Assembly (NCBI GenBank): GCA_963667625.1
Contig: OY763921.1
Location: 325,778-389,777 of the forward strand
DNA length: 64,000 nt
From: Thermodesulfobacteriota bacterium
Lineage (GTDB): Bacteria; Desulfobacterota_D; UBA1144; Nemesobacterales; Nemesobacteraceae
Direction of reading: 5' to 3'
The position numbers were made by a program, and so were the translations under genes. Below the pieces are notes generated by a model, which was not told the origin of the DNA, did no database searches, and saw only the letters and a program-made list of their open reading frames with translations. Positions 7,575-36,200 of this stretch are shown piece by piece. Positions within the stretch are counted from its first letter, which is position 1; the number at the start of each line of letters is the position of its first letter.

Positions 7575-7689
7575 GCTTTTTCCCTCCGCCGCCCTTTGGT
7601 GTGGGCTTTTTGTTTTTTTAGATACCTGATTTTAAGGCACTTTACATGCTGACAGAGGGTGTTTATATTGAGAAATAGAGGTTGTTTTC

Positions 7690-8187: not shown

Positions 8188-8319
8188 TGCCGCTTTGCCC
8201 CGGGTTGCAGATGTAATTTTGCTTGACATTGAATACGCACCTGTGATAGAAGCATAATTAGCGGTCCCTGTCTTGGGACCGGGAACGGTTATGATCTCAT
8301 ACAGGAGGTATGGTTAGTT

Positions 8320-8844: not shown

Positions 8845-9073
8845 GGTTGGCTTTGCCTTGCTTCCCTGAAACAGTCCGGCTTTTTAAGTGTCGGAGCAAA
8901 CGGGAAGCACGAGATGTTTAAGAGTCTGTTTTGTTTCGGCTAGGCAGTCCGAAACTTAACGAAAGTTTGCGAGGAGACTTCGGTTTCAAATGGTTTTTGA
9001 TGCGGTGGTCACCGAGCAAATAATTCCTAGCCCTTGAGGCGAGGAAGTGCCGGTTTACAGGTGGTTAGAAAAA

Positions 9074-9112
9074 AGGGGGACTTTCTTCAAGTCCCCCTCT
9101 TTTTTTGCTTTT
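9074..9112. terminator. Rho-independent terminator in convergent intergenic region
   Basis: 9-bp stem AGGGGGACT / AGTCCCCCT with a 7-nt loop, followed by CTTTTTTTGCTTTTTCC; an A-run precedes the hairpin, so it can act bidirectionally. Confidence 0.65.
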
Positions 9113-9188
9113 TCCGTTCCGTTGGTCTTCTGACTTCAGTTGGGTTTGAGTTTCGTATATAAACCCAAGTCAGCAAATTCCGGAGTTT

Positions 9189-9641
9189 TTACGCTTCTTC
9201 TTTTCTCTGGACGAGAATTACCCACTTTCCCTTCTGGACGGGTTTTTCAGCGTCTTTGTGGGTAAATACATTTACCTCAAAGATAAAAAATCCCATGTTC
9301 GGACGCTTGTGTTCCCTTTTCTCAACGAGCTTTCTCGTTATGTGAATCGTATCACCTGGGAATACCGCTCCCGAGAATCTCCAGTCTTCAAGCCCCATGA
9401 AAGCGACGGTAGCGAGTCTCGGCATGGTGAACCAGAGGCCCGTTGCTATGGATGTGACCAGCATGCCGTGGGCTACCCTTGTCTTGAAAACGGTTTTCTT
9501 GGCAAACTCCTCGTCTATGTGCATATTGTTGTAATCTGCGGAAAGTCCCGCGAAGTTGACGATGTCGGCTTCAGTAATCGTCCTTCCTGAGCTTTTGTGC
9601 TCGTCTCCCTCGTTCAGATCTTCGTAAAAAAGTTTTGGCAT
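9189..9641 (-). CDS. MaoC-like (R)-specific enoyl-CoA hydratase / hot-dog fold dehydratase
   Basis: 150 aa; DYNNMHIDEEFAKKTVFKTRVAHGMLV is a typical MaoC dehydratase motif. Confidence 0.8.
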   Translation of the reverse strand: MPKLFYEDLNEGDEHKSSGRTITEADIVNFAGLSADYNNMHIDEEFAKKTVFKTRVAHGMLVTSIATGLWFTMPRLATVAFMGLEDWRFSGAVFPGDTIHITRKLVEKREHKRPNMGFFIFEVNVFTHKDAEKPVQKGKWVILVQRKEEA

Positions 9642-9656
9642 CTTTGGTTCTCCTTT

Positions 9657-10082
9657 TTAACCCGCTGGTTTGAATTTGGGCAGTGTGACCTCATCGGTAA
9701 CGTCATCGAAGCAGACCTGCACTTCCATCCCTATGGACACTTCATTCGGATCCACGTCAACCACGTTGGACATCATCTTAACTCCTTCATCCATCTCGAT
9801 AAGGGCCACGACATAAGGAGGCTCACCCTTGTAGGCTTTCGAGGGTCCCATGTGGTGTATGGAAAAAGTCCACACCTTCCCCCGTCCCTCGCTCTCAACC
9901 CACTCTATGTCGTCACTCATGTCCCCTCCCGGGGAAAGAGCCCTCGGGTAAAAGAAAAACTCCCCTGTCTCCCTTGATCTGGGGATAACCAGCTTGTGCT
10001 CCTTCGCGGCATCCCAAAACGGCTTTGTCTCGGGCCTGAATTCAGGCAAAGGCTTGTTGTACGCTTTTTTCTCTTCTGACAT
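9657..10082 (-). CDS. DUF35 OB-fold / Zn-ribbon protein (thiolase partner subunit)
   Basis: 141 aa. N-terminal Zn-ribbon-like region plus OB-fold segment GRGKVWTFSIHH; it lies immediately downstream of the SCP-x-type thiolase, as in BbsA/ChsH-type pairs. Confidence 0.7.
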   Translation of the reverse strand: MSEEKKAYNKPLPEFRPETKPFWDAAKEHKLVIPRSRETGEFFFYPRALSPGGDMSDDIEWVESEGRGKVWTFSIHHMGPSKAYKGEPPYVVALIEMDEGVKMMSNVVDVDPNEVSIGMEVQVCFDDVTDEVTLPKFKPAG

Positions 10083-10109
10083 CTTCTTGTTCTCCTTGTT
10101 TGCTTACTG

Positions 10110-11321
10110 TTAATTAATCGGCTGGCTGCCAAGAACCACTGTGCTGTGAGCCGACACTATCCCGCCGTTTCCATGCACAACCGCAACCTCGGGATTCTCA
10201 ACCTGCCTTGCCCCCGCGTCTCCCCTCAACTGCAACGTGGCTTCCACCACATGATGCATGGCCCCCAGGTGAGCCTGGGAGAGCAGTCCCCCGTGGGTGT
10301 TCACAGGAAGGTCCTTCCCAATCTCCATCCTTCCCTCAAGAGCAAACGCTCCTCCCTCTCCCTTGGGGACAAAACCCAGTCCCTCAAGTTCAAGCAGCAC
10401 TGTTATGGTGAAGCAGTCGTAAAGAAACGCTATGTCAACATCCCTGGGCTCTATCCCAGCTGTGCTGAAAGCTTTCTGCCCCGACCGCTCAACAGCGTTG
10501 TATATCTGGTCAAGGTTCTCAAGAGTGGTTAAGTACTGGTGGGAGTATCCCTGTCCCATTCCCCAAAGATACGCAAGATCGTTTTCTATCCCAAGCTCCT
10601 TGGCCTTGTCCTCCGTGGTCACTATGAAAGCGGCTCCGCCGTCTGAGATAATGGAGCAGTCATACTTGGTAAGAGGCTCGGCTATAACCCTTGAGCTGAG
10701 AACGTCCTCTACGGAGAGGGGGTCCTTGTTCATGGCGTTTTCCTTGTCGGCGGCATGCTTTCTCATTGTCACTGCCACAGCTGCAAGGTGTTCTCTTCGG
10801 GCACCCCAGTCATGGAGGTATCTCTGCGCCGCGAGGGCGTAACCCCCAGGGGTGGTAAGTCCGTATGGGAATTCAAACTCCGCGTGGCACATTTCCCTTA
10901 TAAGCGCGAGCATGCCTGAAGACGAAATCCCCGAGAGGGTGTTGTCCCCCCTTACGCAGAGTACCACTTCAGCCTGTCCCGACGCTATGGCCATGGCGGC
11001 TTCGGCGACCATCCACACGGCCGTTGCCCCGCCCACTGCAACCGAGGAGAAAAACCTCGGGTTCATGCCGAAGTAATCGGCAAAGGTTGTGCAGTGCATG
11101 AACGTGTGCTCCACTAGGGAGAAGGCCGTTACGAGGCCGTCCACGTCATCTTTTTTAATTCCCGCGTCCTCAATCGCAAGCTTTGAAGCTTCGCTCAGGA
11201 AGTGAAAGGAGCTTTTATCCGGGATTTTACCCTGTTCCGTCTCGCCCACTCCGGCGATAACCACTTTTTTCTTCTTAAGAAGTTCTCGGGTCTCTTGTAT
11301 GCCCGGAAGATTATCTGACAT
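10110..11321 (-). CDS. Thiolase-like protein (SCP-x / nonspecific lipid-transfer protein-type thiolase)
   Basis: 403 aa, thiolase fold length. N-terminus KVVIAGVGETEQGK; paired with a DUF35 gene. Confidence 0.75.
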   Translation of the reverse strand: MSDNLPGIQETRELLKKKKVVIAGVGETEQGKIPDKSSFHFLSEASKLAIEDAGIKKDDVDGLVTAFSLVEHTFMHCTTFADYFGMNPRFFSSVAVGGATAVWMVAEAAMAIASGQAEVVLCVRGDNTLSGISSSGMLALIREMCHAEFEFPYGLTTPGGYALAAQRYLHDWGARREHLAAVAVTMRKHAADKENAMNKDPLSVEDVLSSRVIAEPLTKYDCSIISDGGAAFIVTTEDKAKELGIENDLAYLWGMGQGYSHQYLTTLENLDQIYNAVERSGQKAFSTAGIEPRDVDIAFLYDCFTITVLLELEGLGFVPKGEGGAFALEGRMEIGKDLPVNTHGGLLSQAHLGAMHHVVEATLQLRGDAGARQVENPEVAVVHGNGGIVSAHSTVVLGSQPIN

Positions 11322-21982: not shown

Positions 21983-22001
21983 ATGGATTGTGGAGACAGT
22001 T

Positions 22002-22298
22002 CTAGCCTAGCACAGAGTCCTTGCAGGCTTTCGCCACACGAAACTTCAGGACTTTTCTTGCAGGTATGCTGATTTCTTCGCCAGTGGCAGGATTTCTCCC
22101 CATTCTGGCACTGCGATTGCTGATAACCAGTTTGCCGATTCCAGGAATCGTGAATTCTCCTTTTTCCTTTACCTCTTCACATGCAATTGACGCTATAGCA
22201 TCAATAACGGTTTTGGCTGTCGCCTTGGTTATTCCCGCCTTCTCTGCCAAGCTGCTTGAAAGCTGGGATTTTGTTAAAGGTTTTCCGTTCACTAACAT
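22002..22298 (-). CDS. HU-family DNA-binding protein
   Basis: 98 aa; ...GEFTIPGIGKLVISNRSARMGRNPATGEEISIPARKVLKFRVAK is the typical HU/IHF arm. Confidence 0.85.
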   Translation of the reverse strand: MLVNGKPLTKSQLSSSLAEKAGITKATAKTVIDAIASIACEEVKEKGEFTIPGIGKLVISNRSARMGRNPATGEEISIPARKVLKFRVAKACKDSVLG

Positions 22299-22435
22299 CC
22301 TCCTTAAAATCTCTTAATAATTATCGGGTTATTCTGGCTAAAAGTCAATCTGTTTTGCCGGTTGTTGCTAAATCGCCGGATTCTCAATATTGTTAAGAAT
22401 GTTTTTCTTATTGAAGCTTTTGTAGGTGGAAATAG

Positions 22436-23575
22436 ATGAGATCTTGGTTCAGGGAAAGAAAAATGAAGAGCTGGTTGACTCTGGCTTTAGTATTTCTTGG
22501 TTTCCTTTTGGTTCTTTTTCTTCTGTACGCAAGGTTTCTTCAAGAAAGGGAATCGAGTGCACAGCATCACTCTGAAGATAACGTCTACAGGCCCATAAAG
22601 GTGATGACGCCTGTAGCGTCCTCAGGTTCAGTTTACACCGAAGTTCTCGGAAGAGTCCGTGGCAAGCAGACCGTCTTGGTCCGAACGACTGTTTCGGGAT
22701 GGGTAAAGCGGATAGATTCCGGCCGAGGTCAGGAGATCGAAAAGGACGGAATTATCCTCGAACTCTACGATTACCGCGTGGAAACGCGGCTTGACGAGGC
22801 AAAGTACAATCTTGAATCCGCCAAGGGGAAGCTTGCCGAGGCTGAAAGGGTATACCGCAGGAACGAGGCTCTTTTTGAGAAGGGAATAGTCTCTGAGGAT
22901 GAAACCGAAGCGTCGCGAAACCTTCTTGAAACCGCCTCGGCCGGCGTAAAGGCACTTGAAGCTTCTTACAAAAGGGCCAAGTGGAATTACGAAAACCTCA
23001 AGATTCGTTCCCCTATCCAAGGCCAGATTGTTGAAATCGTTCCCGACGTCGGACAGGAGACAAGAAACGGGGATGTGGTAGCCAAAGTCGTTAATCTAAG
23101 CGGCAGGAAAGTCATAGCCGGCGTGGATGTGTCCGTTGCCAGGAGTGTCAAACGGGGAGATGCTCTTGAGGTATCACTTACAAGAGACGGAACGGTGGAA
23201 ACCGTCGCGGGCGAGGTTGACGGCGTGAGTCCGGGTTCTGATGATTTCTCGGGCACCTACGATATCGAGATTGCCATATCTGATCCCTTTGTAAAATGGT
23301 GGCCGGGGGAAATGGTTTCCGTGAAAATACCGCTCCAGACGCTTGATAATGTCGTCAGAATCCCCAAAACGGCTGTCTTGTCCGACAATAAAGAAAATTT
23401 CTCTTTCGTGCTGGTTGAAAAAAACGGAGAAGTTCTCAAGGCTAAAGTGGCGCCCACGTGGATAGACGATAATTCGGCCTACATATCCTTTGATTCGCTT
23501 CCCCCAGCTTCAAGAATAATAACCGAGGGGAACTTCGGCCTCCTTCCCGGTCAGCCGGTAAGGGTTGTCGACTGA
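22436..23575 (+). CDS. Efflux RND/HlyD-family periplasmic adaptor (membrane fusion protein)
   Basis: N-terminal TM segment, coiled-coil region, biotin-lipoyl-like and beta-barrel segments (IRSPIQGQIVEI). Confidence 0.7.
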   Translation: MRSWFRERKMKSWLTLALVFLGFLLVLFLLYARFLQERESSAQHHSEDNVYRPIKVMTPVASSGSVYTEVLGRVRGKQTVLVRTTVSGWVKRIDSGRGQEIEKDGIILELYDYRVETRLDEAKYNLESAKGKLAEAERVYRRNEALFEKGIVSEDETEASRNLLETASAGVKALEASYKRAKWNYENLKIRSPIQGQIVEIVPDVGQETRNGDVVAKVVNLSGRKVIAGVDVSVARSVKRGDALEVSLTRDGTVETVAGEVDGVSPGSDDFSGTYDIEIAISDPFVKWWPGEMVSVKIPLQTLDNVVRIPKTAVLSDNKENFSFVLVEKNGEVLKAKVAPTWIDDNSAYISFDSLPPASRIITEGNFGLLPGQPVRVVD

Positions 23576-23602: not shown

Positions 23603-24766
23603 TCAGCAGGGGTTACTTCTGAGAAATTCGCATTTCTCCCGGACAATCTCTGTCGCCTTTTGTATCTCCTCGAAGGTGTTCTCCGGGCAGAAGCTGAATC
23701 TTATGCTTGAATATGCATGCTGTTCATCCAGTCCCATGGCGGTCAGAACGTAGGATGGCGTAACGTCGAAATTCGTGCACGCAGAACTCTGGGAACACCT
23801 TATTCCAGCCTCGTCAAGAAGGGAGACTAGTTCTCTTCCGTCAGTTCCGCCGAAATGGATATTGGTGGTGTTGCATACTCTTTCCCCGCCGCCACCGTTA
23901 ACCGAGGTGTCCGGGATGGATTCAATTATTGTTTTCTCGAACCGGTCGCGAAGGTCTTTCATCTTTCCTGTGGCCTGCTTAAGCCTTGTGCACCTTATCT
24001 CGCAGGCGGTCCCGAAGCCTGCTACGCCTGGAAGGTTCTCAGTCCCGGGACGAAACCCTTCCTCCTGGAATCCTCCAAAAAGGAAAGGATTCACAAGCAG
24101 CCTGTCTTTTGCGTAGAGAACCGCGGCACCCTGAGGACCGCTGATTTTATGAGCTGTGAAAGAGAGAAAATCCACGTGAAGCTTCGCAAGGTCCACCTCA
24201 AGCTTCCCTACGGCTTGGGCAGCGTCGGTATGGAGAAGCACTCCGTTTTTCCTGCAGACCTCGGAAATGCTCGCCATATCCTGTATAACTCCGGTCTCGT
24301 TGTTAACCCACTGCACGGAAACGAGGTCGGTTTTCTCGGAAATCGCGTTTTCGAGTCTTCGGATGTCAAGAACCCCCTGTCTATCCACCTCGAGCATTTC
24401 GACGTGCACGTCGTTTAGTTCGAGGAAATTGCACATCTTCATTATCGAGGAATGCTCTACTTGGGTTGTGACAACGCGCGGCTTCTCTTTTTTCCTCGTG
24501 CAGGAATAAAAAACCATGTTGTTTGATTCCGTGCCGGAACTTGTGAATATGAGGTCTTCGGGGGAGCATCCCACAAGATCGGAGGTCCGTTTGCGGGCAA
24601 GCTCCATGCGGCGCCTCGCTCGCTCTCCAGCCGAATGGGCACTTGAGGGATTGCCGAAACCCTCACCCATGGCTTCGTGCATGGCCTCCGTTACTTCGGG
24701 AAGTGGTCTTGTGGTTGCGTTGTTGTCAAAGTAGATTTCGCCGGAAATGTCCTCTGTACACCCCAT
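23603..24766 (-). CDS. Cysteine desulfurase (NifS/IscS-like, class V aminotransferase)
   Basis: PLP-lysine motif SFTAHKISGPQGAAVLY and an N-terminus IYFDNNATTRP. Confidence 0.85.
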   Translation of the reverse strand: MGCTEDISGEIYFDNNATTRPLPEVTEAMHEAMGEGFGNPSSAHSAGERARRRMELARKRTSDLVGCSPEDLIFTSSGTESNNMVFYSCTRKKEKPRVVTTQVEHSSIMKMCNFLELNDVHVEMLEVDRQGVLDIRRLENAISEKTDLVSVQWVNNETGVIQDMASISEVCRKNGVLLHTDAAQAVGKLEVDLAKLHVDFLSFTAHKISGPQGAAVLYAKDRLLVNPFLFGGFQEEGFRPGTENLPGVAGFGTACEIRCTRLKQATGKMKDLRDRFEKTIIESIPDTSVNGGGGERVCNTTNIHFGGTDGRELVSLLDEAGIRCSQSSACTNFDVTPSYVLTAMGLDEQHAYSSIRFSFCPENTFEEIQKATEIVREKCEFLRSNPC

Positions 24767-26068: not shown

Positions 26069-26752
26069 ATGAAAGATTTTTTCGAAAAAAACTTCCTCCT
26101 CATCTCTCACCGTGGCGCGAGTCATTACGAACCGGAAAATACTCTTCGCTCTTTCCGCAGGGCCCTGGACATGGGGGCTGGGGTGATAGAGTTCGATGTG
26201 AGGAAAAGTCTTGACGGCCGCTTGGTCGTCATCCACGATCGGACGGTCGACAGGACCACGGATGGCAAAGGAGCCGTTTCGGGGAAGACGCTTTCTGAAC
26301 TCAGGTCTCTTGACGCCGGTTGCGGGGAGCGGATACCGACTCTTGAAGAGGTCTTTGAGAATTTCGGGGGGCGTTGCAGACTCGTAGTTGAGCTTAAGGA
26401 GAGGGGCACCGAAGAGGAAACGGTCTCGCTTATAAAAAAACATGGTCTCACCACAGAAGTCGCGGTGGTTTCTTTCCGCGGAGACTGTATTCGCTCGGTA
26501 AGGGCGCTTGATTCCGCCATCCCCACGGGACTTATTACGGTTTTCGGCTTCGGGTGCGTGAAGAAGGCTCTTTCGCTGGGTTGCCGGGTAGTTGCTGCGA
26601 ATCACCGTTTTATGACGCGTCGGCTTGTTTCGCAAGCACGGGAAACCGGTCTTTTTGTATGCTGCTGGACAGTTAATGACCCGAAGCGAGCCGAAAAACT
26701 GGCGGGGATGGGCCTTAACGGGGTAATTACAGACAAGCCCGACCTGCTCTGA
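26069..26752 (+). CDS. Glycerophosphodiester phosphodiesterase
   Basis: GDPD motifs HRGASHYEPENTL and EFDVRKSLDGRLVVIHD. Confidence 0.85.
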   Translation: MKDFFEKNFLLISHRGASHYEPENTLRSFRRALDMGAGVIEFDVRKSLDGRLVVIHDRTVDRTTDGKGAVSGKTLSELRSLDAGCGERIPTLEEVFENFGGRCRLVVELKERGTEEETVSLIKKHGLTTEVAVVSFRGDCIRSVRALDSAIPTGLITVFGFGCVKKALSLGCRVVAANHRFMTRRLVSQARETGLFVCCWTVNDPKRAEKLAGMGLNGVITDKPDLL

Positions 26753-26824
26753 AGCCTGCTTGCGGCTGCGCGTTGCCGTGATTTACGCAGTCAATCGGTT
26801 ATTATCCGGTACCAGATATGCTGT

Positions 26825-28009
26825 TTGACTAACGGTGAGGAAATGCCGCCTGACTCCATAAGTTCCATATATCTTGACTATAACGCGACCACGCCCCTTG
26901 ACCCGCGCGTTCTGGAAGAGATGACTTCCTATTTCGCCGAGAACTACGGGAACCCTTCCAGCATTCATTCTCCCGGAAGCGTCGCGCGTGCGGCGGTTGA
27001 TTCCGCCCGGGAAAGAGTATCGGATTATCTCGGAGCGAGGCCGGGAGAGATAGTTTTTACTTCCGGGGGCAGCGAAAGCAACAATTTCGCCATAAAAGGC
27101 CTTGCCTACGCCCTCTCCGACAGAGGAAACCACTTGGTTACGACCGCAGTCGAGCACGCATCGTGTCTTGAGACGTTCAGGTTTTTTGAGCGCAGCGGTT
27201 TCGAGGTCACTTACCTTCCGGTAGATTCCTTCGGTCTGGTTTCCCCCGAGCAGTTCCGAGAAGCGATTACCGAGCGCACGATTCTTGTCTCCTGTATGTA
27301 CGTGAATAACGAGACCGGGGTTATAAGCCCGATTCGCAACATAGGAGAAATTGCCCGCGAGAGAGGAGTGGTTTTCCATACAGATGCGGTCCAGGCCCTG
27401 GGGAAAATGGAAATCAACCTTGCTGATCTGCCGGTGGATATGGCGTCTTTTTCCTCTCACAAGATTTGCGGTCCCAAGGGGGCGGGCGCTCTTTACGTAA
27501 GAAAAGGAATCGGCCTTGAGCCTTTTGTGCACGGCGGGGGGCAGGAGAGGGGAAAGAGATCGGGAACGGAGAACGTGGCGGCCGTCTGCGGATTCGGTTA
27601 CGCGTGCGAGCTTCTCTGTGCGGAGCTTGAGACGGAAAACGAAAGACTGGGGAAGCTGCGCGACCGTCTTTTCGAAGAGCTTTCCCGGAGGGTAGGGGAT
27701 GTTTACCTGAACGGACATCCCGACGCGAGAGTCTCAAATACCCTTAACGTTGGCTTTCCCGGCACTCCGGGCGACTCCGTGGTGATGAATCTCGATACCG
27801 CAGGCGTAGCGGTTTCAACTGGTTCCGCCTGCTCCGAGGGAAACGTCGATCCTTCCCACGTGTTGATTGCTATGGGACTCAAAGAACAGGAAGCGCTTTG
27901 CTCGGTCAGGTTCAGCTTCGGTCGTTTTACCCGTTCGGAAGAAATTGACAGAGTGATCGAGCTTCTTCCCGCCATAGTGGAGAGAATAAGGACGCTTCAG
28001 GATTTCTGA
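26825..28009 (+). CDS. Cysteine desulfurase (NifS/IscS-like), second paralog
   Basis: SFSSHKICGPKGAGALYVRKG PLP-Lys motif and N-terminus IYLDYNATTPLDP. Confidence 0.85.
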   Translation: MTNGEEMPPDSISSIYLDYNATTPLDPRVLEEMTSYFAENYGNPSSIHSPGSVARAAVDSARERVSDYLGARPGEIVFTSGGSESNNFAIKGLAYALSDRGNHLVTTAVEHASCLETFRFFERSGFEVTYLPVDSFGLVSPEQFREAITERTILVSCMYVNNETGVISPIRNIGEIARERGVVFHTDAVQALGKMEINLADLPVDMASFSSHKICGPKGAGALYVRKGIGLEPFVHGGGQERGKRSGTENVAAVCGFGYACELLCAELETENERLGKLRDRLFEELSRRVGDVYLNGHPDARVSNTLNVGFPGTPGDSVVMNLDTAGVAVSTGSACSEGNVDPSHVLIAMGLKEQEALCSVRFSFGRFTRSEEIDRVIELLPAIVERIRTLQDF

Positions 28010-28173
28010 TGGGATGTCCGGGAACCGCTTGATGGCGAGTTAATCTGCGGAGAAATTTGGCAGAAAGCCAAATTCTGGACCAAAATTATGGTTGGTCGCT
28101 GTAAATTTCCTAAAACCTGCGGTAAAATGGAAGAAGAAGAAAGGACAGCAAGTCAGGAACCAGACCGACGGTT

Positions 28174-28545
28174 TTGTTCCCTGTAGATTTTCCGATGGAA
28201 AAAAACATCAACATATCCATATTTGAAGTTGTCGGGAGTTCCTTATGCGTCGCCTCGGATGATGGACATAAAGTGTACCATCGCCTTGTCGCCGCACTTG
28301 GCAAGAATCTGCATGTCTGCCTGTCTTTCCGCAACATTTCCACGCTCACATCGGCATTTCTCAATACGGCAATAGGCCAGTTGTACGGAGAGTTTGATGA
28401 AAAACGGATTCGGGAACTGCTGAAAGTGGAAGACATCGAACCTGATGACGTAGCGTTGCTCAAGCATGTTGTTGTCAATGCCAAGCAGTACTTTGAGGAT
28501 GAAGCGGCTTTCGGGAAAGCACTTCTGGAAACAACCGAAGATTGA
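28174..28545 (+). CDS. Stand-alone STAS-like protein (DUF4325-like; anti-sigma-antagonist fold)
   Basis: 123 aa from a TTG start (alternative ATG at 28195, MEKNINISIF). SIFEVVGSSLCVASDDGHKVYHRLV ... VCLSFRNISTLTSAFLNTAIGQLYG resembles STAS/DUF4325 (weak, from memory). Lower GC than the flanks. Its stop lies 4 nt before the next gene's ATG. Confidence 0.55.
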   Translation: MFPVDFPMEKNINISIFEVVGSSLCVASDDGHKVYHRLVAALGKNLHVCLSFRNISTLTSAFLNTAIGQLYGEFDEKRIRELLKVEDIEPDDVALLKHVVVNAKQYFEDEAAFGKALLETTED

Positions 28546-28549
28546 AGCA

Positions 28550-29113
28550 ATGAAGAGTCAGGCCGTCCATGTGAGAAACTACTCCTTCGGACCTCAGGAC
28601 AAGCTGTTTTTCGATGCCAATATCTGGATGTTTCTCTACGGCCCGCAGGGGCAAAACAATCTTCCTGGTAACAGGATGTCAGTTTATTCTTCCGCATTTA
28701 GCCGTATCCTTAAGGCGCAAAGCCGTATTTATATTGATGTTCTTATAGTTTCGGAATTTATTAATACCTACGCGCGACGGAAATGGGAGATATTTAAGGC
28801 AACTGATCGTTCTGGCAGAGGCAGCGAAAGCTTCAAGAATTTTCGCAACAGTTCTGATTTCAACCCCGTTGCCAAGGAAATCGCCGACAAGACTAGGCGG
28901 ATTCTGAAACATTGTCGCAAGATTGAAAGTGGCTTTGAAATATTGGAGATGGACAGCTTGATTAAAAGGTATGAAAACGGAGGCACGGATTTCAACGACC
29001 AGGTTTTCATGCAACTGTGCAAAAATAGAGAATTCAAACTTGTAACGGATGACCGTGATTTCAAAAATCAGGGAATATCCATACTGACGGCCAATGGTCG
29101 TTTGCTGAGATAG
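28550..29113 (+). CDS. PIN-like nuclease-domain protein
   Basis: 188 aa from ATG 28550, translationally coupled to the upstream gene. Acidic residues sit at PIN-like positions: LFFDANIWMFLY (strand 1 Asp), IYIDVLIVSEF, TDFNDQVF, and C-terminal LVTDDRDF. Confidence 0.5.
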   Translation: MKSQAVHVRNYSFGPQDKLFFDANIWMFLYGPQGQNNLPGNRMSVYSSAFSRILKAQSRIYIDVLIVSEFINTYARRKWEIFKATDRSGRGSESFKNFRNSSDFNPVAKEIADKTRRILKHCRKIESGFEILEMDSLIKRYENGGTDFNDQVFMQLCKNREFKLVTDDRDFKNQGISILTANGRLLR

Positions 29114-29240
29114 CCTTCGTGTCATCAAATGCTGAATTTAATGAATCGCAATTGCCACAGGCGTCGAGACTCCGGGGGACGGGTTCCATCAGGACTGCCG
29201 ACGTTTTTAACGGCATTATAACGGTTTTGGAGGTATCGGC

Positions 29241-30113
29241 ATGAAATTCTATCTGCCGGAAATCAGGAATGACTTTGAAGGCTTTGCGGCCCTGACCCAA
29301 CTCTATTCTCAGACCAGGAATTGTCTTTTTGAGAATATCGAAATCGACATGCGGGCAACAAGCTGGTTCGATGCCGACATGTGTTCGGTATTCGGGGCGA
29401 TTCTCTATAGCTTGAGGAGCAACCTGAATAATGTCACCTTGACCAACATAACCCCAGGCGTGAAACAAATTCTATCGAAAAACAGTTTTCTTGTTCATTA
29501 CGGACAGGCGTTGAATATTGCTGACCACTGGGGAACAACCATTTTCTACAAACGGTTCAATATCGGCGAAAGGCGCTATTTTTCTGATTATATAGATAAT
29601 GAATTCATTAATCGTGAAGAGATACCGCAGATGTCCCACGCTCTTCTTAAAAAATTCAGGGAGAGCCTTTTCGAGATATTCGACAATTCCATGATCCATT
29701 CTAGAACGGAATTGGGGGTTTTCAGCTGCGGACAATTTTTTCCTAATCGAAACAGACTTGACTTTATTGTTGTCGATTTGGGCGTCGGCATTCGAAAAAA
29801 AGTATGCGACCATCTGGAGTTTGATATTTCGCCGGAACAAGCCATTGAATGGGCCACTCAGGAAACAAACACAACCAAGAGAGGTACTCCCGGCGGGCTA
29901 GGATTAAAACTCCTTTCCAACTTCATTGACTTAAACAGCGGTCGCATACAGATCGTTTCTGACGCGGGATACTGGTGTCGAAAGAATCGGAACACCATTA
30001 CTAGACGGCTGGACCACCCGCTTCCCGGTACCGCGGTAAGCCTAGAGATAAACACCGCAGATACCAATTCCTACCGACTTTCCCACGAAACTAGTCTCGA
30101 CGATATTTTCTAA
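29241..30113 (+). CDS. STAS-like N-domain fused to GHKL (histidine-kinase/anti-sigma-factor-like) ATPase
   Basis: RBS GGAGG at 29229-29233. C-terminal HATPase_c boxes: N-box EIFDNSMIHS, G1 DLGVGI, G2 GTPGGLGLKLLSNF. The N-terminal ~140 aa (IDMRATSWFDADMCSVFGAILYSL ... VTLTNITPGVKQILSKNSFL) has a STAS/SpoIIAA-like pattern. Confidence 0.6.
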   Translation: MKFYLPEIRNDFEGFAALTQLYSQTRNCLFENIEIDMRATSWFDADMCSVFGAILYSLRSNLNNVTLTNITPGVKQILSKNSFLVHYGQALNIADHWGTTIFYKRFNIGERRYFSDYIDNEFINREEIPQMSHALLKKFRESLFEIFDNSMIHSRTELGVFSCGQFFPNRNRLDFIVVDLGVGIRKKVCDHLEFDISPEQAIEWATQETNTTKRGTPGGLGLKLLSNFIDLNSGRIQIVSDAGYWCRKNRNTITRRLDHPLPGTAVSLEINTADTNSYRLSHETSLDDIF

Positions 30114-30402
30114 ACAATTTAGCCGTTGCCTTATTATGCATGCTGCTGAACCAACAGGGTTTTTCGTAAACTTTCGCGCTGTTTCCAAGATCAATTTTCT
30201 AGACTTCACAGGCGTTTGAAGGAAGCGGATGCCAGCTTAACTGATTAACTCAAAAGCCCGATAATTTAATCCCTGCGCTTATATTACAAAATTGATTATT
30301 TTACAATAAGGCGGTTGTTACTTTAACCAAGAACAATGGGAATAAGATAGATTTTCACATACCCTATCTTGTAACGCCCGGTTTCTTGGCGTTCCATATA
30401 TA

Positions 30403-30639
30403 GTGGTTACACTGCTACATATGAAAGGATTTATTTGGGAATTGCTGCTCATTGTTGTACTTGCAGTAATTCCCATGTCTAATGGCTTAAGATTAACATT
30501 GGATTTACTAGGTAATGTTGTGCTTCATAGTACAGAAGCAGAAACACAGGTAGTTTCGGAAACAACAGAGAAACCAATCCCAACTTATTCACTATCCCCA
30601 GACGACTACATAGATTCCCATTCCAAAACAATTAACCTT
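30403..30639 (+). pseudogene. 5' fragment of a small AT-rich ORF interrupted by IS30 insertion (N-terminal TM helix)
   Basis: The ORF runs into the IS left inverted repeat. After excising 30640-31719 and one CTT copy, the frame continues into 31723-31851, giving a reconstructed ORF of about 120 aa. Confidence 0.5.
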
Positions 30640-31719
30640 CGTGCTTTCAAGTTTGAAACGCAACTTTTGATGTAAATTAAAAGGGCAAGTTGCGATAATC
30701 TTCGCAACCCTCTTTTAACGACCAAATCAAAAGGAGCGTTTGAATGAGAAAACCAAAGCAACTTACCCTGGAACAAAGATACCAGATTTACATCCTGCGC
30801 AAAGCAGGGCACAACCAGACCCAGACCGCAAGGCACCTGGGCGTGCACAAATCCACCATAAGCAGGGAACTTCACCGCAACCGCGGCAAACGGGGTTACC
30901 GTCCCAAGCAGGCTCAGAGGCTTGCGGAGGGCAGGCGCAATTGTTGTGGAAACCGTATCCCCCAACAAACCTGGATTCGCGTGGAGCTGCTGCTCGGAGA
31001 AGACTGGAGTCCCCAGCAGATAAGCTGCTGGCTTGCCCGAAACGAAGGACTCAGCGTAAGCCACCAGAGCATCTACAATCACGTAAGGGAAGACAAGATT
31101 AATGGAGGAGATCTCCACACGCACCTTCGCTGCCGCAAGAAGCGCAGAAAGCGCTACGGAGCGCCCTCGCGCAGGGGACATATAAAAAACCGTGTCTGTA
31201 TAGACCAGCGCCCCGAAGTGGTGGATAAGCGTGTGCGCTTAGGAGACTGGGAAGCCGACACTGTGCTTGGCTCAAGAAAAAAAGGCAAGGTGCTCGTAAC
31301 CCTCGCCGAGCGCAAGTCCCGCTATTGCATGATTCTGGTCTCTGAGGACAAAAAAGCTTCCTCCGTCTCCCGGGCCATACTCGAGGCGGCGACACCCATG
31401 CGCAAGCGCTTCGAGACTGTGACGTGCGATAACGGAAAGGAGTTCGCGTTGCATGAGGAACTATCAAGCGAGCTCTCGGCGCGGTGGTACTTCGCCCATC
31501 CTTACCACTCGTGGGAGCGGGGGTCCTGTGAAAACGCAAACGGACTTATAAGGCAGTACTTCCCAAAGGGAATGGACTTCGGGAAACTGACGCAGGAAGA
31601 TGTAGACAGAGTTATGGACAAATTGAACAACAGACCGAGGCAATGCCTTGGCTTCAAAACCCCGAATCAGGTACTCTTCGGTGCTGATCCACCTGTTGCG
31701 TTTCAAACTTGAAAGCACG
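30640..31719 (+). mobile_element. IS30-family insertion sequence (1080 bp) with perfect 25-bp terminal inverted repeats and 3-bp CTT target-site duplication
   Basis: IRL CGTGCTTTCAAGTTTGAAACGCAAC at 30640-30664 and IRR GTTGCGTTTCAAACTTGAAAGCACG at 31695-31719 are exact reverse complements. CTT flanks both ends (30637-30639 and 31720-31722). A single transposase ORF lies inside, and the IRR overlaps its stop. Confidence 0.85.
30744..31712 (+). CDS. IS30-family DDE transposase
   Basis: 322 aa with an N-terminal HTH (LTLEQRYQIYILRKAGHNQTQTARHLGVHKSTISRELHRNRG) and DDE core (DWEADTV, CDNGKEF, then a third acidic residue) typical of IS30-family transposases. AAGGAG RBS upstream. Confidence 0.85.
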   Translation: MRKPKQLTLEQRYQIYILRKAGHNQTQTARHLGVHKSTISRELHRNRGKRGYRPKQAQRLAEGRRNCCGNRIPQQTWIRVELLLGEDWSPQQISCWLARNEGLSVSHQSIYNHVREDKINGGDLHTHLRCRKKRRKRYGAPSRRGHIKNRVCIDQRPEVVDKRVRLGDWEADTVLGSRKKGKVLVTLAERKSRYCMILVSEDKKASSVSRAILEAATPMRKRFETVTCDNGKEFALHEELSSELSARWYFAHPYHSWERGSCENANGLIRQYFPKGMDFGKLTQEDVDRVMDKLNNRPRQCLGFKTPNQVLFGADPPVAFQT

Positions 31720-31851
31720 CTTAATAGAGAACTGCTGGATATCGAGTTTGATGAAATGCTTAGACTATATGAACCATACGCTAAAAGAGAACGTGAGGCT
31801 TTTCTCAGAATAGCGGTATTTCCCGATAACATAACTCCCTACAATTATTAG
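31720..31851 (+). pseudogene. 3' fragment of the IS30-interrupted small ORF
   Basis: In-frame continuation (NRELLDIEFDEMLRLYEPYAKREREAFLRIAVFPDNITPYNY*) of the 30403-30639 fragment once the IS is removed. Confidence 0.45.
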
Positions 31852-31888
31852 ACTTTATTAGCTTCAATATATAGTTCCCCAAGCAAAG

Positions 31889-32932
31889 TTATGGATAAAG
31901 CGGGATGGAGTCAAGTCCCAGGCTCTCAGGAAGGTCAAGCATGATGTTCATGTTCTGTATTGCCTGGCCGGAGGCTCCCTTTACCAAGTTATCTATGGCG
32001 CAGACAATTACCGCGGTTTTTTTCTCCGGGTTTGCCCTTACGCCTATGTCGCAGAAATTTGAACCCCTGACGCAGGAAGTGTTCGGGAAAGTTCCCTCGG
32101 GAAGAATCCTCACGAAGGGAGAGTTCTTGTAGAATTGCCCTAGAGCGTCCAGCAGGTCCTGGGTCTTCCGGCTGCCCGAGAGGCTTACGTATATTGTCGA
32201 GAGGATGCCCCTGTTTATCGGTATAAGATGCGGAGTGAAAGCGACTTCCACCTTGCTGCCTAGAAAATCCGAAAGTCCCTGCTCTATTTCAGGGGCATGG
32301 CGGTGTTCGCCTACTTTGTAGGCTTTCATTCCTTCGGAGACTTCGCAGAAATGGAGGTCAAGCGAAGGGTTCCTTCCGGCTCCCGAAGCCCCGGATTTCG
32401 AATCGATAATGATCCCTTCTGTCTCCACCATGCCGTTTTCGAGAAGCGGCGCGAGCGGAAGGATTGAAGAGGTGGGATAGCACCCCGGGTTTGCCACCAG
32501 TTTTGTTTCCGATATCCGTTCCGCATGCAGTTCAGGGATTCCGTAGACGGCGTTTTCGAGAAGATGGGCGCACGGATGATCCCCGTACCAGTCCCTGTAG
32601 GTGCCTTCCCTGAGACGGAAATCCGCCCCGAGATCAATTATCCTTACGTCCCTTCCATAAATTTCTTCTATGAGTTCGGCCGATGCCCCGTGCGGAAGCG
32701 CGGCGAATACCACGTCGGTATCATCCGGGATGAGCGAGGGGTCTGAACTGCTGAGCTCGAGATCGGTTATCTCTCCAAGGTGCGGAAACACCTCGGCCAG
32801 AGCACGACCTGCATTCCTCGATGCTGTTAAATGCGAAATACTAGCCCGGGGATGTCCCCTAAGGAGCCTTATGAGTTCCGCTCCCGTATAGCCGCTTGCT
32901 CCCAGAATACATACGTTAAGCTTTTCCATCAC
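31889..32932 (-). CDS. argC: N-acetyl-gamma-glutamyl-phosphate reductase
   Basis: N-terminal Rossmann segment VCILGASGYTGAELIRLL, a Cys active-site region, and 347 aa length. Confidence 0.9.
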   Translation of the reverse strand: MMEKLNVCILGASGYTGAELIRLLRGHPRASISHLTASRNAGRALAEVFPHLGEITDLELSSSDPSLIPDDTDVVFAALPHGASAELIEEIYGRDVRIIDLGADFRLREGTYRDWYGDHPCAHLLENAVYGIPELHAERISETKLVANPGCYPTSSILPLAPLLENGMVETEGIIIDSKSGASGAGRNPSLDLHFCEVSEGMKAYKVGEHRHAPEIEQGLSDFLGSKVEVAFTPHLIPINRGILSTIYVSLSGSRKTQDLLDALGQFYKNSPFVRILPEGTFPNTSCVRGSNFCDIGVRANPEKKTAVIVCAIDNLVKGASGQAIQNMNIMLDLPESLGLDSIPLYP

Positions 32933-33280
32933 CGTGAAACGATACTACGGGAATCGGAAAAACTCAATCCGACCCCGGCAATTCAGAGATTTGTTCCGGG
33001 AATGACATAAGCAACCTTAAATTCTCGGTATCCGTTCCGGAATTTCCGAGGTTTCTTCGAAGAATTATGAGGCGTTTTATTATCCGGTACAATTACCAGA
33101 GGCGTTTTGAGGCTGTGGTTAACCGCAGGACGGGTGGAAACTCCGTTTAACAAGGCAAGACACGGTTTCAAATCCGCAGGAGGAACCCCTGCCGATACCG
33201 AAAAGACATACCGCTTGATCGGGCTCCCCCCACTCGGGATCATAATCGAGCGCACACTAAGCATTGTCGACTGATTCTCT

Positions 33281-36200
33281 ATGCATGTCGCCGATTTTTC
33301 AGTAAGAAATTCCTTTTTCGTGAACCTGCTGATGGGAGCCATAATACTTATAGGGCTTCTGTTTTCATTCTCTCTTCCCCTTGAACTGTTCCCGTCGGTA
33401 AAACTCGAAATGGTGACGGTCACCACGTCTTTTCCGGGTTCTTCCGCCGAAGACGTTGAGAATCTTGTAAGCGTTCCAATTGAGCAGCAGATAAAGAACG
33501 TCTCCGGCGTCAAGATCGTAAAATCCGTTTCTTCCGAAGGGTTCTCACGGGTTACGGCTGAGGTTTATCCAGGTGAAGACACCAGAAGGATTGCCTGGGA
33601 GATTGATTCCAAGATCAACCTGATAGTAGACGATCTTCCAGAGGATGCCGAAGAACCCGTAACAGAAGAGCAAAAGGCGAGTTTTCCGCTGGTGAGCGTT
33701 TCGGTCTCAGGGGATATGCCAAGAGATATTCTCTATAGTAGCGCCAGAAGACTGCGGGATGAGCTTGCTCTTTTGGACGGTATTGACAACGTGACTTCCG
33801 TCGGACTGCCTGACCCGGCAATATGGGTGTATCTGGACTACCCGAAGATGGTGCAGTTTGGACTGGGGATTGGGGAGATTTCAGATGCCATCAACGCAAG
33901 AAATCTTGATATTCCCGGGGCGAATTTTACTCGGAACAGTGCTGACTTTCTGCTTAGAACCGAGGGAAAGATAAGATCTGTGGAAGATCTTCTCGATATT
34001 CCGGTTGCTAGGAGCATTGAGGGTAAACATGTCCTACTCCGCGATGTGGCGACGGTCACTCTCGGGGAACAGCGAGAGGACCTGAGATCGAGGATAAACG
34101 GTCGTCCTGCGATTACTTTCTGGGTGGAGAAGCAGAAAAACGTTGATATCCTCGATACCGTCGACCACATAAAGCAGCTTACCGAAAAATACAAAAGCAA
34201 GCTTCCCGAAGATGTGGAGATAACCCTGGCGTTTGACAGGTCACACTGGGTGAAAAGTCGTCTTCGGACCATGCTTAAAAGCGGGGGTCTGGGGTTTGTT
34301 CTGGTAGTAATCCTTCTCACTCTTTTTCTTGATCGCAAGGCAGCCTTCATAGCCGCCCTGGGGATTCCTGTTTCATTTCTTGGGGCTGCGATATTAATGA
34401 AGATGACCGGCACGACGCTGAATGTCCTTTCGATGTTCGGTCTCATAATGATGTTGGGCCTAGTGGTGGATGACGCCATAATCGTTGTTGAGAACGTCCA
34501 GAGGTATATATCAAGGGGAATGAAACCGCTGAGGGCGGCGGTAGTAGGGACAAAAGAGGTTGCTTGGCCAGTGGTTGCGACTGTGCTGACCAATATCGCC
34601 GCGTTTACTCCCCTTCTTCTTGCCACGGGACTGATCGGGCAGTTCCTTTCCATAATTCCCAAGGTTGCGATCTTCGCTCTTTGCTTCTCCCTTTTCGAAG
34701 CCCTGGTGATCATGCCATCTCACTGCGCCAGCTGGCTTCCGGCCAACGGCAGAACGAGACCTCCTCGTGGAAACGCGGCGCTTCTGCGCGTAAGAGGCCT
34801 GTATCTGCGGGGACTTCTGTTTGCGCTTAGAAACCGCTATGCGGTAATAGGGTGTTTCACGGTTATTTTTGCCGTTTCGGTCTTTATCTTTGTCCGGATT
34901 CCCAACGTGATGTTCTACCTTCATGATATCGAGGAGGTAATGGTGAGGGTTGAGAATCCCCCCTCATCCAGTCTGGAGAATACAGTTGCTTCCGTAGCCC
35001 AGGTGGAGGAAGCGGTGCGTCACAGCGTTCCCCCTCATGTTCTGAGGAACACTTTATCCATGGTTGGCATCGATATGTCTGATCCTGACACTCTGTTTTC
35101 CACGGGAGACCACCTGGCCACGGTTCTGGTTGAATACGAGGATTACTCTGCCAGGAAAGAAAACGCGGTCAAACTCTCTGAGATTGCGGAAAACAGAGCA
35201 AGGGAAACGGTTACGGGAGCCAAACAGGTTGATTTCCTCAAGACGACGGGTCCTCCTACCGGGAAAGCGGTGGACGTCAAAATAATCGGAGATGACATAC
35301 CGGTGCTGATGGAAATAGCTTCCCGGGTCCGGGAGTTTTTGAGTAGTCAGCCGGGGGTGAGTGCTGCGACTAGTAATCTTGTTTACGGAAAGCCCGAGGC
35401 GAGAGTTGAGATAGACGAAAGAAAAGCCGGGGTGTTCGGTATTGACAAGTGGAGTGTGTCGCGGGAAATCAAGGCCCTTGGAGACGGTCTCACAGTTGCG
35501 AAGACCAGAGTGGGTGAGGAAGAGGCCGAGATAAATCTGCGATACGGAAGGGGGGATTCCAGTGTTTTCTCGGTGAAATCGCACCAGATCCCGACTCCTC
35601 TCGGGGAGCGGGTTCCTATCGGCACTGTGGCGGAGATAACGGACTCCAAGACACCGCTTGAGATAAGAAGGGAGAAACTTCGAAGAACAGTCACCGTAAC
35701 AGCCGAAGTCGATGCCCACACGACCACTTCAAGAGAGGTAAACGCAAACCTTTCGCGTCACCTCGGCAGTCTTCTGGAGAGCTACCCGGGCTACTCGTTT
35801 CGGTTCGCGGGGGAGGAGGAGCAATATACTCAGGCTATAAGCGACATAAAAAAGGCGTCGCTTTTGGCTTTACTTCTTATTTATCTCATTCTCGCAAGCA
35901 TACTGCGCTCCGTCTTTCAGCCCTTTATAATAATGAGTGTCCTGCCTTTTTGTGTTACGGGAGTGATCGTAGCGATTCTGCTGCGCGGCGAACCCATGAC
36001 GCTTCCCGCCATAATAGGAATGGTCGCGCTTCTGGGAATAGTGGTGAACGACAGTTTGCTGCTGATGAATTTCATCAACCGAAGGGCGAAAAAGATGCCG
36101 AGCAAGGTAATAGCGGTAGTATTTTCCGCCAGGTATCGTTTCCGCCCGATTGTTCTCACCACGCTTACGACTTTCTTGGGGCTTTTCTCCCTGATGTTCG

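Follow-up and report, generated by a model that had tools for sequence, protein, structure and literature searches.

A low-GC three-gene cassette beside an IS30 element

The window (the whole stretch of DNA analysed, 64,000 nucleotides of contig OY763921.1) holds a cassette of three plus-strand genes, here called vapS, vapC and vapK, followed by an AT-rich spacer and an IS30-family element (Table 1). As a preliminary description of the sequence had stated, the three genes are linked and co-directional, with 4 nt between the vapS stop codon and the vapC start, and the motifs that it quoted from their products are present in the window proteins and conserved across the family. The mechanical reading frame of the first gene runs from a TTG (28174-28545); the ATG at 28195 is the likely start, since relatives align from 28193 onwards and the 116-aa product that it yields is identical to a recorded protein (NCBI MCY4379904.1). 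For vapC, the ATG at 28550 is the most likely start, and the resulting 187-aa product is identical to MCY4379905.1. A GGAGGT ribosome-binding site lies 7 nt before the vapK ATG. Among relatives that share the order vapS-vapC-vapK (hereafter S-C-K), the vapC-vapK spacer measures 113-211 nt and is conserved only at the ribosome-binding site, so we propose no regulatory element or small RNA there. A promoter and terminator scan of positions 27900-30800 returned nothing exceeding the shuffled expectation, and neither Rfam families nor tRNAs were found in scans of the whole window.

Table 1. Coordinates of the cassette genes and of their downstream context in the window.
Feature	Position	Strand	Description
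vapS	28195-28545	+	Predicted 116-aa STAS-like (DUF4325) antitoxin with a short C-terminal region; predicted phospho-acceptor S53
vapC	28550-29113	+	Predicted 187-aa PIN-domain nuclease toxin; acidic residues D22, E69, D147, D150, D168, D170
vapC-vapK spacer	29114-29240	+	127 nt; found only with the permuted S-C-K arrangement
vapK	29241-30113	+	Predicted 290-aa kinase: N-terminal STAS-like domain and C-terminal SpoIIAB-like GHKL domain, no HTH
AT-rich spacer downstream of vapK	30114-30639	not assigned	GC 0.38; context only
IS30-family element	30640-31719	+	Intact, 1080 bp; context only, outside the system

The GC content of the cassette is 0.44-0.47 versus 0.54-0.55 in the flanking nifS-like and argC genes, a drop of 8-10 points; the lower GC had been correctly noticed before, and the bins between 28 and 31 kb are the three lowest-GC 1-kb bins in the whole window. 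DNA homology to one relative (locus L001) spans 28193-30111 only; together with the GC drop, this limit delineates the cassette as a discrete unit. It is horizontally mobile across phyla, with a low GC typical of defence cargo. Its neighbours are housekeeping genes (nifS-like, argC, AcrB); no other recognised defence gene lies within ~10 kb, and PADLOC was empty for ten neighbouring window proteins. The only repeats found around the cassette are the inverted repeats of the IS30 element; none flank the cassette itself, and nothing resembling an att site was found. Among the viral contigs scanned there was a single distant relative (37% identity), which argues that the family is not notably phage-borne.

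The transposase gene of the IS30 element (30744-31712) encodes HTH_38 and rve domains, perfect 25-nt inverted repeats lie at 30640-30664 and 31695-31719, and the insertion has produced a 3-bp CTT target duplication. The AT-rich spacer resumes on the far side of the element, at 31720-31888. By DNA comparison, this spacer is not shared with the relatives that have S-C-K elsewhere, and a 90-aa reading frame within it (30403-30675) has no family match. The preliminary description had taken the element as the sign of an acquired island. Its identification as IS30 is borne out by the domains, the repeats and the duplication, but it is no evidence for how the cassette came to be here: in locus L093, which is 99.96% identical, the cassette occupies this site too, with IS30 absent and the empty site clean. 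The element is, by this comparison, a later and independent insertion. We also asked whether IS30 had brought the cassette in, since IS30-like genes adjoin the cassette in two other loci (L001 and L090), and rejected this reading for the window locus because its near-identical counterpart has the cassette without the insertion sequence.

Each product matches a component of Escherichia VapKSC

The closest characterised system is VapKSC, described by Chambers, Rani, Min, Villa and Corbett (EMBO J 2026; PMC13373217) from a type operon of Escherichia sp. E4736, for which the VapS-VapC crystal structure was solved as a VapS2VapC2 complex (PDB 9Z7O). In that system VapC is toxic and its toxicity depends on D28, while VapS rescues cells from VapC in a manner that needs the VapS C-terminus and is abolished by the S48E substitution (PMC13373217).

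The second window gene had been read as a PIN nuclease from the pattern of its acidic residues, and this assignment was upheld. VapC matches Pfam PIN (E=3.7e-6, 28 bits versus a cut-off of 23.6); as a single sequence, its best PDB match is Escherichia VapC (9z7o_C) over the full length (E=5.8e-5), which is also the sole PDB match of the VapC family profile (E=1.2e-11). D22 aligns with the catalytic D28 of Escherichia VapC, and the acidic residues D22, E69, D147, D150, D168 and D170 are kept in 78-81 of 81 homologues. Gene 2 is therefore a predicted PIN nuclease and a homologue of Escherichia VapC; it has the catalytic Asp and the acidic site that mark this component of the family.

Equally, the earlier reading of gene 1 as a stand-alone STAS or DUF4325-like protein of about 120 aa proved accurate. 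VapS matches Pfam DUF4325 (E=1.4e-14) and has Escherichia VapS as its best PDB match (9z7o_A, E=5.7e-12, residues 3-104), the two proteins being of equal length (116 aa). S53 aligns with S48 of Escherichia VapS and is kept in 81 of 83 homologues. The Pfam search found no winged-helix (wHTH) domain, leaving the STAS domain and a short tail only. [quoted passage not shown]

VapK shares 30% identity over 245 aa with Escherichia VapK (BLASTP, E=2e-28), the query sequence of the latter being taken from the supplementary model file of PMC13373217. Its STAS fold begins at residue 2, with no N-terminal HTH, and is fused to a GHKL domain whose N (E145, N149), G1 (D179-x-G181-x-G183) and G2 (G219-L-G221-L) boxes are present and conserved, in line with the fusion initially described. 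Of the profile matches then expected, those to DUF4325 and PIN were obtained, but the HATPase_c match of VapK scores under the Pfam gathering threshold. W42 aligns with F54 of Escherichia VapK, a putative ssDNA-contact position, and is conserved at 90% or more in 40 homologues; the related kinase CapK has W68 at the matching aromatic position (PMC13373217). The third product hence combines STAS and GHKL domains without HTH, homology to Escherichia VapK and the aromatic residue.

PADLOC additionally gave a weak DrmA match to VapK, which raised DISARM as a candidate. The match covers 133 residues against model positions 144-276 of 1750 (E=2.3e-7), and we read it as a single GHKL-sized region of a long model, not as DrmA as a whole. 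DISARM combines the DrmA helicase and a methylase with DrmB (DUF1998), DrmC or DrmD. The neighbourhood of the cassette encodes no helicase, DUF1998 protein or methylase, and the candidate was rejected.

A conserved trio in permuted order

Homologues of vapS and vapC lie adjacent to vapK on one strand in 84 of the 86 loci fetched, from many phyla, and further loci (L087-L091) likewise have all three genes clustered co-directionally. VapK homologues as a whole make up at least 1372 clusters. Conservation of the trio in other genomes, which the preliminary description had proposed to check, therefore exceeds chance. The window order is S-C-K, with the 127-nt spacer before vapK, versus K-S-C in all 289 operons of Dataset EV3 (PMC13373217), a layout that is a descriptive feature of that catalogue and not a functional criterion of its authors. 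S-C-K is limited to a small clade of Dadabacteria and other Thermodesulfobacteriota, in which VapK is at least 66% identical to that of the window. Within this clade, which is free of restriction-modification (RM) genes, dN/dS is 0.12-0.32 for all three genes, indicating purifying selection. Because the three orthologues are contiguous and under purifying selection, we treat the window locus as a rearranged VapKSC member; that S-C-K is tolerated under such selection argues that it is the three proteins, rather than the order of their genes, that matter for function. Moreover, Nitrotoga AM1P, Nitrosomonas nitrosa Nm90 and others encode proteins 50-64% identical to those of the window and are listed in Dataset EV3, forming a direct bridge from the window cassette to the published catalogue.

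Altogether, the window cassette is very probably a kinase-controlled toxin-antitoxin and anti-phage module of the VapKSC family, in the permuted order vapS-vapC-vapK. What we propose of its function draws on sequence homology, on the conservation of residues and of gene linkage, and on purifying selection. Counting against this identity are the distance from the sole characterised system, visible in the 30% identity of VapK and in the single-sequence E-value of VapC (5.8e-5), the sub-threshold HATPase_c match, the departure in gene order with its 127-nt gap before vapK, and the lack of other recognised defence genes within ~10 kb and of a PADLOC or NCBIfam model. The cassette had been put forward as a possible undescribed system. 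It is instead an already known one, a VapKSC member with rearranged gene order: the family has been named, its structure 9Z7O solved and phage protection shown (PMC13373217), and the coupling of PIN with DUF4325 was catalogued in 2017 by Matelska et al. as group PIN.4 (PMC5499597). PADLOC and NCBIfam hold no model for the trio and gave no system-level match.

The domain content of genes 1 and 3 can be read in two other ways, both of which make the PIN gene incidental. The fold of VapK resembles that of SpoIIAB/RsbW-type GHKL kinases, and the trio might be a classical anti-sigma partner switch (RsbW/RsbV or SpoIIAB/SpoIIAA type) with its sigma factor elsewhere, lying beside an independent VapC toxin. 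In anti-sigma modules the kinase binds its cognate sigma factor, usually encoded in the same operon. As initially remarked, no sigma-factor gene is present, with none found among the genes in 24-36 kb, and a STAS domain is fused to VapK itself, which is not the case in RsbW or SpoIIAB. In addition, the sequestered protein is here a PIN nuclease, and it would be held by the STAS protein and not by the kinase, as 9Z7O shows for the homologous Escherichia proteins, where the STAS protein sits directly on the nuclease (PMC13373217). With the trio strictly linked across phyla as well, we find this reading hardly credible.

The second reading, to which we give just as little weight, is a CapK/CapS-type pair of transcriptional regulators serving a neighbouring immune operon, with the PIN gene as unrelated cargo. 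CapK and CapS are homologous to VapK and VapS and share their logic, a GHKL-STAS kinase with a STAS substrate bearing a conserved serine, and the same trigger, ssDNA from DNA damage, is proposed for both (PMC13373217); an association with RM systems is also common to CapK-CapS and to relatives of the window cassette (see below). However, CapK and CapS repress a downstream operon through an N-terminal HTH and a C-terminal wHTH, respectively, and the window proteins have neither domain. What follows vapK is the AT-rich spacer, IS30 and argC instead of an immune operon, and the linkage of the PIN gene in 84 of 86 loci is at odds with unrelated cargo. The output of the window VapK and VapS would rather be direct release of the nuclease.

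Restriction-modification operons in relatives and the role of the cassette

Relatives often have the cassette inserted as mod-vapK-vapS-vapC-res, vapK overlapping the mod stop codon by 4 nt and res beginning a few nt past vapC. The upstream neighbour is N6_N4_Mtase (Mod) in 25 of 71 relatives and the downstream neighbour ResIII (Res) in 17 of 72. Roughly one third of close relatives lie inside RM operons; many K-S-C loci also occur without RM neighbours. The window has no Mod upstream, where the nifS-like gene lies, and no Res downstream, where the AT-rich spacer, IS30 and argC follow. The VapKSC report mentions neither the mod/res intercalation nor a permuted order, and its Dataset EV3 gives Nitrotoga AM1P no PADLOC hit (PMC13373217).

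We tentatively raise the possibility that type III R-M operons are the native setting of this subfamily, as an integral module whose kinase, sensing ssDNA or damage, reads restriction or its failure and fires the PIN toxin in a back-up suicide response, the S-C-K form of Dadabacteria being an RM-free, permuted derivative that moves as a self-contained unit. If true, S-C-K would translate the toxin-antitoxin pair first and start the kinase separately, beyond a spacer that is not conserved, which could alter the ratio of kinase to antitoxin and the threshold for triggering. The mod/res placement of about one third of the subfamily offers a testable case for restriction coupled to an abortive-infection-type toxin.

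The frequent mod-vapK-vapS-vapC-res arrangement could also mean that the window cassette is an orphaned type III R-M accessory, non-working without Mod and Res, or an otherwise decaying remnant, and in some relatives vapC is indeed damaged (frameshifted in L090, interrupted by a stop codon in L020) or not detectable (L056). Yet none of the three window genes is truncated, their catalytic residues are intact, dN/dS of 0.12-0.32 extends across the RM-free S-C-K clade, and many K-S-C loci likewise stand without RM neighbours. The Escherichia operon, too, works by itself on a plasmid in a host deleted for RM (PMC13373217). We regard an orphaned or decaying remnant as very improbable.

Whether VapKSC wiring serves immunity at this locus is a separate question. 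The Escherichia system confers ~2-log protection against phage Bas42, which is gone in the D28A, S48A and F54A mutants (PMC13373217). Since this is the single phage for which protection is reported, the system could instead serve a general response to DNA damage or stress, or addiction: the window cassette would then be a plain addiction or stabilisation toxin-antitoxin, or a general growth-arrest switch for DNA damage and stress, wired as VapKSC with no dedicated anti-phage role. Its position alone amid the nifS-like, argC and AcrB housekeeping genes, with no recognised defence genes nearby, would suit such a role; the authors themselves call the immunity/stress-response boundary fuzzy, and 64% of the catalogued operons have no defence neighbour (PMC13373217). 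We nevertheless consider this unlikely, given that about one third of close relatives reside within RM operons, that cross-phylum mobility and low GC are typical of defence cargo, and that the type system does protect against phage.

Proposed mechanism and comparison with known systems

By homology with the Escherichia sp. E4736 system, VapC would be a PIN nuclease that requires Mg2+ and stops growth, probably through cleavage of rRNA or tRNA. VapS would hold it off in a 2:2 complex formed through the STAS domain, with the C-terminal helix placed beside the active site. [quoted passage not shown] Phosphorylated VapS would then dissociate and free VapC, leading to growth arrest or abortive infection. 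Even for Escherichia, the kinase activity of VapK on VapS, its activation by ssDNA and the RNA target are inferred: Escherichia VapK is insoluble, and support comes from an AlphaFold3 model and the F54A phenotype (PMC13373217). The scheme first suggested from the window, in which a STAS protein and a STAS-GHKL kinase gate a PIN effector with a toxin-antitoxin or abortive-infection logic, agrees with VapKSC as shown or proposed (PMC13373217). It needs one refinement: VapS would not only be the kinase substrate but would also neutralise the nuclease directly, as its antitoxin.

The window and Escherichia cassettes share linked, co-directional genes and the key residues (S53/S48 in VapS, D22/D28 in VapC, W42/F54 in VapK). 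They differ in the order vapS-vapC-(127 nt)-vapK, in sequence, VapS (E=5.7e-12) and VapC (E=5.8e-5) being distant as VapK is, in a W instead of F at the aromatic position, and in the host of the window cassette, an uncultured member of the Dadabacteria. As in VapBC modules and PIN.4, the latter compared by its description (PMC5499597), a VapC-group PIN toxin would be neutralised by a small protein encoded directly upstream. Unlike in type II VapBC, the window antitoxin is a predicted STAS/DUF4325 protein and not a DNA-binding VapB of AbrB, RHH, HTH or PHD type; according to the description of 9Z7O, VapS leaves the catalytic Mg2+ in place; and toxin release in VapKSC would proceed by phosphorylation, as opposed to proteolysis in VapBC.

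Candidatus Dadabacteria genomes are small, ~1.8 Mb, and the locus extends VapKSC to this group. That a reading of the raw sequence rebuilt the logic of a system characterised only in 2026 validates the approach; it is not a discovery. The divergent VapK orthologues could also prove soluble, which would open the way to the phosphorylation and ssDNA-activation assays in which Escherichia VapK failed.

The cassette belongs to the VapKSC system

We found that the three genes form a known toxin-antitoxin and anti-phage system, VapKSC, with a minor architectural twist, and we name them accordingly (genes 1, 2 and 3 are vapS, vapC and vapK). The preliminary description had proposed an undescribed STAS, PIN and STAS-GHKL cassette of three co-directional genes; these are present on the plus strand, with 4 nt between the stop of gene 1 and the start of gene 2, and their most likely coding ranges are listed in the table. 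The start proposed at 28174 stands as the TTG at which the first mechanical ORF opens, but the likely start lies at 28195, since homology to relatives begins at 28193 and the 116-aa product is identical to the deposited protein MCY4379904.1. The 187-aa gene 2 product is likewise identical to MCY4379905.1. A spacer of 127 nt, with a GGAGGT ribosome-binding site, precedes gene 3, and no promoter signal above chance was found in the scanned cassette region. As anticipated, Pfam searches matched DUF4325 and PIN, whereas HATPase_c was present but sub-threshold.

Features of the cassette, of its surroundings and of related loci (coordinates count within the window or within the named locus)
Feature	Location	Strand	Details
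vapS (gene 1)	window 28195-28545	+	116 aa; Pfam DUF4325, E=1.4e-14
vapC (gene 2)	window 28550-29113	+	187 aa; Pfam PIN, E=3.7e-6, above cut-off
vapK (gene 3)	window 29241-30113	+	290 aa; Pfam HATPase_c, E=0.003, sub-threshold
IS30-family element	window 30640-31719		intact, 1080 bp; perfect 25-nt inverted repeats 30640-30664 and 31695-31719; HTH_38+rve domains
IS30-like transposase gene	window 30744-31712	+	HTH_38+rve
IS30-like transposase gene	L001/L007 5851-6849	-	HTH_38+rve
IS30-like transposase gene	L090 3568-4542	+	HTH_38+rve
vapK-argC gap	window 30114-30639 and 31720-31888		AT-rich, GC about 0.38-0.40, split by IS30
90-aa ORF	window 30403-30675		in the AT-rich gap; hydrophobic N-terminus
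NifS-like aminotransferase gene	window 23603-24766	-	class V
NifS-like aminotransferase gene	window 26825-28009	+	class V
HlyD-like membrane-fusion gene	window 22436-23575
GC dip	window 22000-22750		GC 0.42-0.43
Region without a long ORF	window 7574-10110
Damaged vapC	L090 5245-5789		frameshift
Damaged vapC	L020 7243-7761		internal stop

The vapKSC operon was defined, besides the CapK/CapS regulators, by Chambers, Rani, Min, Villa and Corbett (EMBO J 2026; PMC13373217; bioRxiv February 2026), who counted 289 instances in IMG, so that the system can no longer be called undescribed; an earlier census of PIN proteins is that of Matelska et al. (PMC5499597). When matched against the PDB, gene 1 had as its top match Escherichia VapS (9z7o_A, E=5.7e-12, residues 3-104), with S53 aligned to chain residue 66, equivalent to native S48 once an 18-residue tag is discounted. 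Gene 2 best matched Escherichia VapC end to end (9z7o_C, E=5.8e-5), its D22 aligned to the catalytic-position D28, and a profile of 29 family members retrieved 9z7o_C as its sole match in the whole PDB (E=1.2e-11). Escherichia VapK, taken from the supplementary AlphaFold3 file of PMC13373217, aligned by BLASTP to gene 3 with 30% identity over 245 residues (E=2e-28). Some of the loci that we fetched are themselves rows of the published catalogue (Dataset EV3) and encode proteins 50-64% identical to those of the window, including Nitrotoga AM1P (L002) and Nitrosomonas nitrosa Nm90 (L022); further catalogue names among them include Thiosymbion oneisti and a Zetaproteobacteria MAG.

The residues on which the system depends are retained. 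S53 of VapS is kept in 81 of 83 homologues, and D22, E69, D147, D150, D168 and D170 of VapC in 78-81 of 81. VapK joins a SpoIIAB-like GHKL domain to an N-terminal STAS-like domain, which starts at residue 2 and leaves no space for an HTH. The motifs first read from its sequence, namely the N box (E145/N149), the G1 box (D179-x-G181-x-G183) and the G2 box (G219-L-G221-L), proved invariant or nearly so across the family. W42, conserved at 90% or more in a 40-homologue alignment, aligns to Escherichia VapK F54, a putative ssDNA contact where CapK likewise has W. Readings of the trio as a CapKS regulator, a classical anti-sigma module, an orphaned restriction-modification accessory or a decayed remnant each failed on architecture or conservation.

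In the type system, VapC of Escherichia sp. E4736 is toxic in a D28-dependent manner, and rescue by VapS requires the VapS C-terminus and is abolished by S48E, S48 being buried at the interface of the VapS2VapC2 crystal structure (9Z7O); the operon gives ~2-log protection against phage Bas42, which is lost in VapC D28A, VapS S48A and VapK F54A (PMC13373217). Toxicity, neutralisation and the complex were thus established by experiment, while the kinase step and its activation by ssDNA were deduced from CapK and AlphaFold3 models because VapK was insoluble (PMC13373217). This model, carried over by homology, is the best-supported reading of the window cassette, and agrees with the partner-switch-gated nuclease proposed at the outset; it is from homology that we infer every functional step at this locus. 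VapS would keep VapC inactive until ssDNA or DNA damage activates VapK, which would phosphorylate VapS at S53 and free the nuclease, and the freed VapC would cause growth arrest or abortive infection. Alternatively, the cassette may serve a non-immune stress or addiction role.

The trio is conserved but permuted

VapK homologues fall into at least 1372 clusters, almost all of 289-294 aa. The gene-neighbourhood comparison suggested earlier bore out the linkage: VapS and VapC homologues adjoin VapK on the same strand in 84 of 86 fetched loci, from phyla including Binatia, Poribacteria, Nitrospirota, Chloroflexota and Pseudomonadota, the two exceptions being a locus at a contig end and L056, which has no detectable vapC. 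The order vapK-vapS-vapC (K-S-C) is found in all 289 catalogued operons and in 80 of the 86 loci, whereas the window reads vapS-vapC-vapK (S-C-K). This permuted order is restricted to its nearest relatives (VapK at least 66% identical; L001/L007, L008, L009 and L087-L090), and those that bear names are Thermodesulfobacteriota MAGs. MCY4379904.1 and MCY4379905.1 were deposited from a Candidatus Dadabacteria MAG (Dadabacteria being a class within Thermodesulfobacteriota), and MCY4379906.1, which comes next, shares a 90% cluster with the VapK of the window.

Flanking DNA differs at every S-C-K locus, and the window and L001 share homologous DNA over exactly 28193-30111 (80.7% identity); the permuted trio thus travels or is maintained as a single unit. 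Moreover, when the window is compared with three S-C-K relatives, every gene gives a dN/dS of 0.12-0.32, so that vapS, vapC and vapK are all maintained as functional genes in the permuted order. Across S-C-K loci the spacer that precedes vapK spans 113-211 nt, with the ribosome-binding site as its sole conserved part. The permutation may have arisen by tandem duplication and subsequent loss, or through a circular intermediate. Separately, vapC is damaged in L090 and L020 with vapK and vapS apparently intact, as they are in L056, a pattern consistent with the toxic component being lost on occasion.

Some related cassettes lie within restriction-modification loci

In K-S-C relatives, the upstream neighbour is an N6_N4_Mtase protein of about 700-770 aa in 25 of 71 cases, with a 4-nt overlap between its stop codon and the start of vapK; the downstream neighbour is a ResIII protein of about 892 aa in 17 of 72, beginning no more than about 100-200 nt, and usually no more than 15 nt, beyond the vapC end. 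Thus, a sizeable share of the subfamily is intercalated between type III-like mod and res genes. The complete mod-vapK-vapS-vapC-res order, with a Mod methylase and a Res helicase-nuclease, occurs at L002, L017, L018, L022, L025, L026, L032, L045, L054, L064, L065, L081, L082 and L091, where res begins at most about 220 nt (15 nt at the majority) beyond vapC. AAA_15/AAA_21 ATPases lie downstream in 8 of 72, chiefly in Poribacteria; at L024, L033, L041, L043, L050 and L053 (Poribacteria, Caldilineaceae) one of ~465 aa replaces Res with Mod upstream, and at L041 a Mrr_cat restriction endonuclease gene directly precedes Mod. PMC13373217, whose neighbour data are PADLOC hits within 10 kb alone and list Nitrotoga AM1P with none, makes no mention of type III systems or of such intercalation. 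The window cassette has neither a mod nor a res partner.

Genomic setting of the cassette

The cassette has a GC content of 0.44-0.47 against 0.54-0.55 in the flanking nifS-like and argC genes, as had been noticed, and the three lowest-GC 1-kb bins of the 64-kb window are those at 28-31 kb. Housekeeping genes surround the cassette (two class-V aminotransferases, F420-ligase-like, GDPD, argC and an AcrB-type pump), and among them a PADLOC search returned 0 matches. The adjacent IS30 element, the only copy in the window, had been taken as a sign of acquisition: it does lie beside the cassette, but was inserted later. An identical VapK is encoded on L093, a 1.82-Mb contig (ENA ERZ25084387 ctg36522c) that matches the window at 99.96% identity over 26241-30639 and 31720-34196. 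This contig lacks IS30 and has a clean empty site at 4397-4399, the 3-bp CTT being duplicated in the window; IS30 therefore entered the AT-rich spacer very recently. Its presence or absence is a strain-level insertion polymorphism, uninformative on how the cassette was acquired. IS30-like transposase genes adjoin the S-C-K cassette in three loci, on differing sides and in differing orientations. The AT-rich gap is absent from relatives with the cassette at other sites, and its 90-aa ORF had no Pfam or PADLOC match.

No tRNA or tmRNA gene, nor any Rfam family at the gathering threshold, was found across the 64-kb window. Between the two paralogous NifS-like genes, which lie on opposite strands, are a 130-aa gene that matched no family, a GDPD gene and an F420-0:gamma-glutamyl-ligase-like gene. 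The second GC dip, smaller than that at the cassette, is found immediately upstream of the HlyD-like gene. The region without a long ORF contains ordinary small genes which, judged by their translations alone, encode MsrB-like, membrane, MaoC-like dehydratase and DUF35-like proteins.
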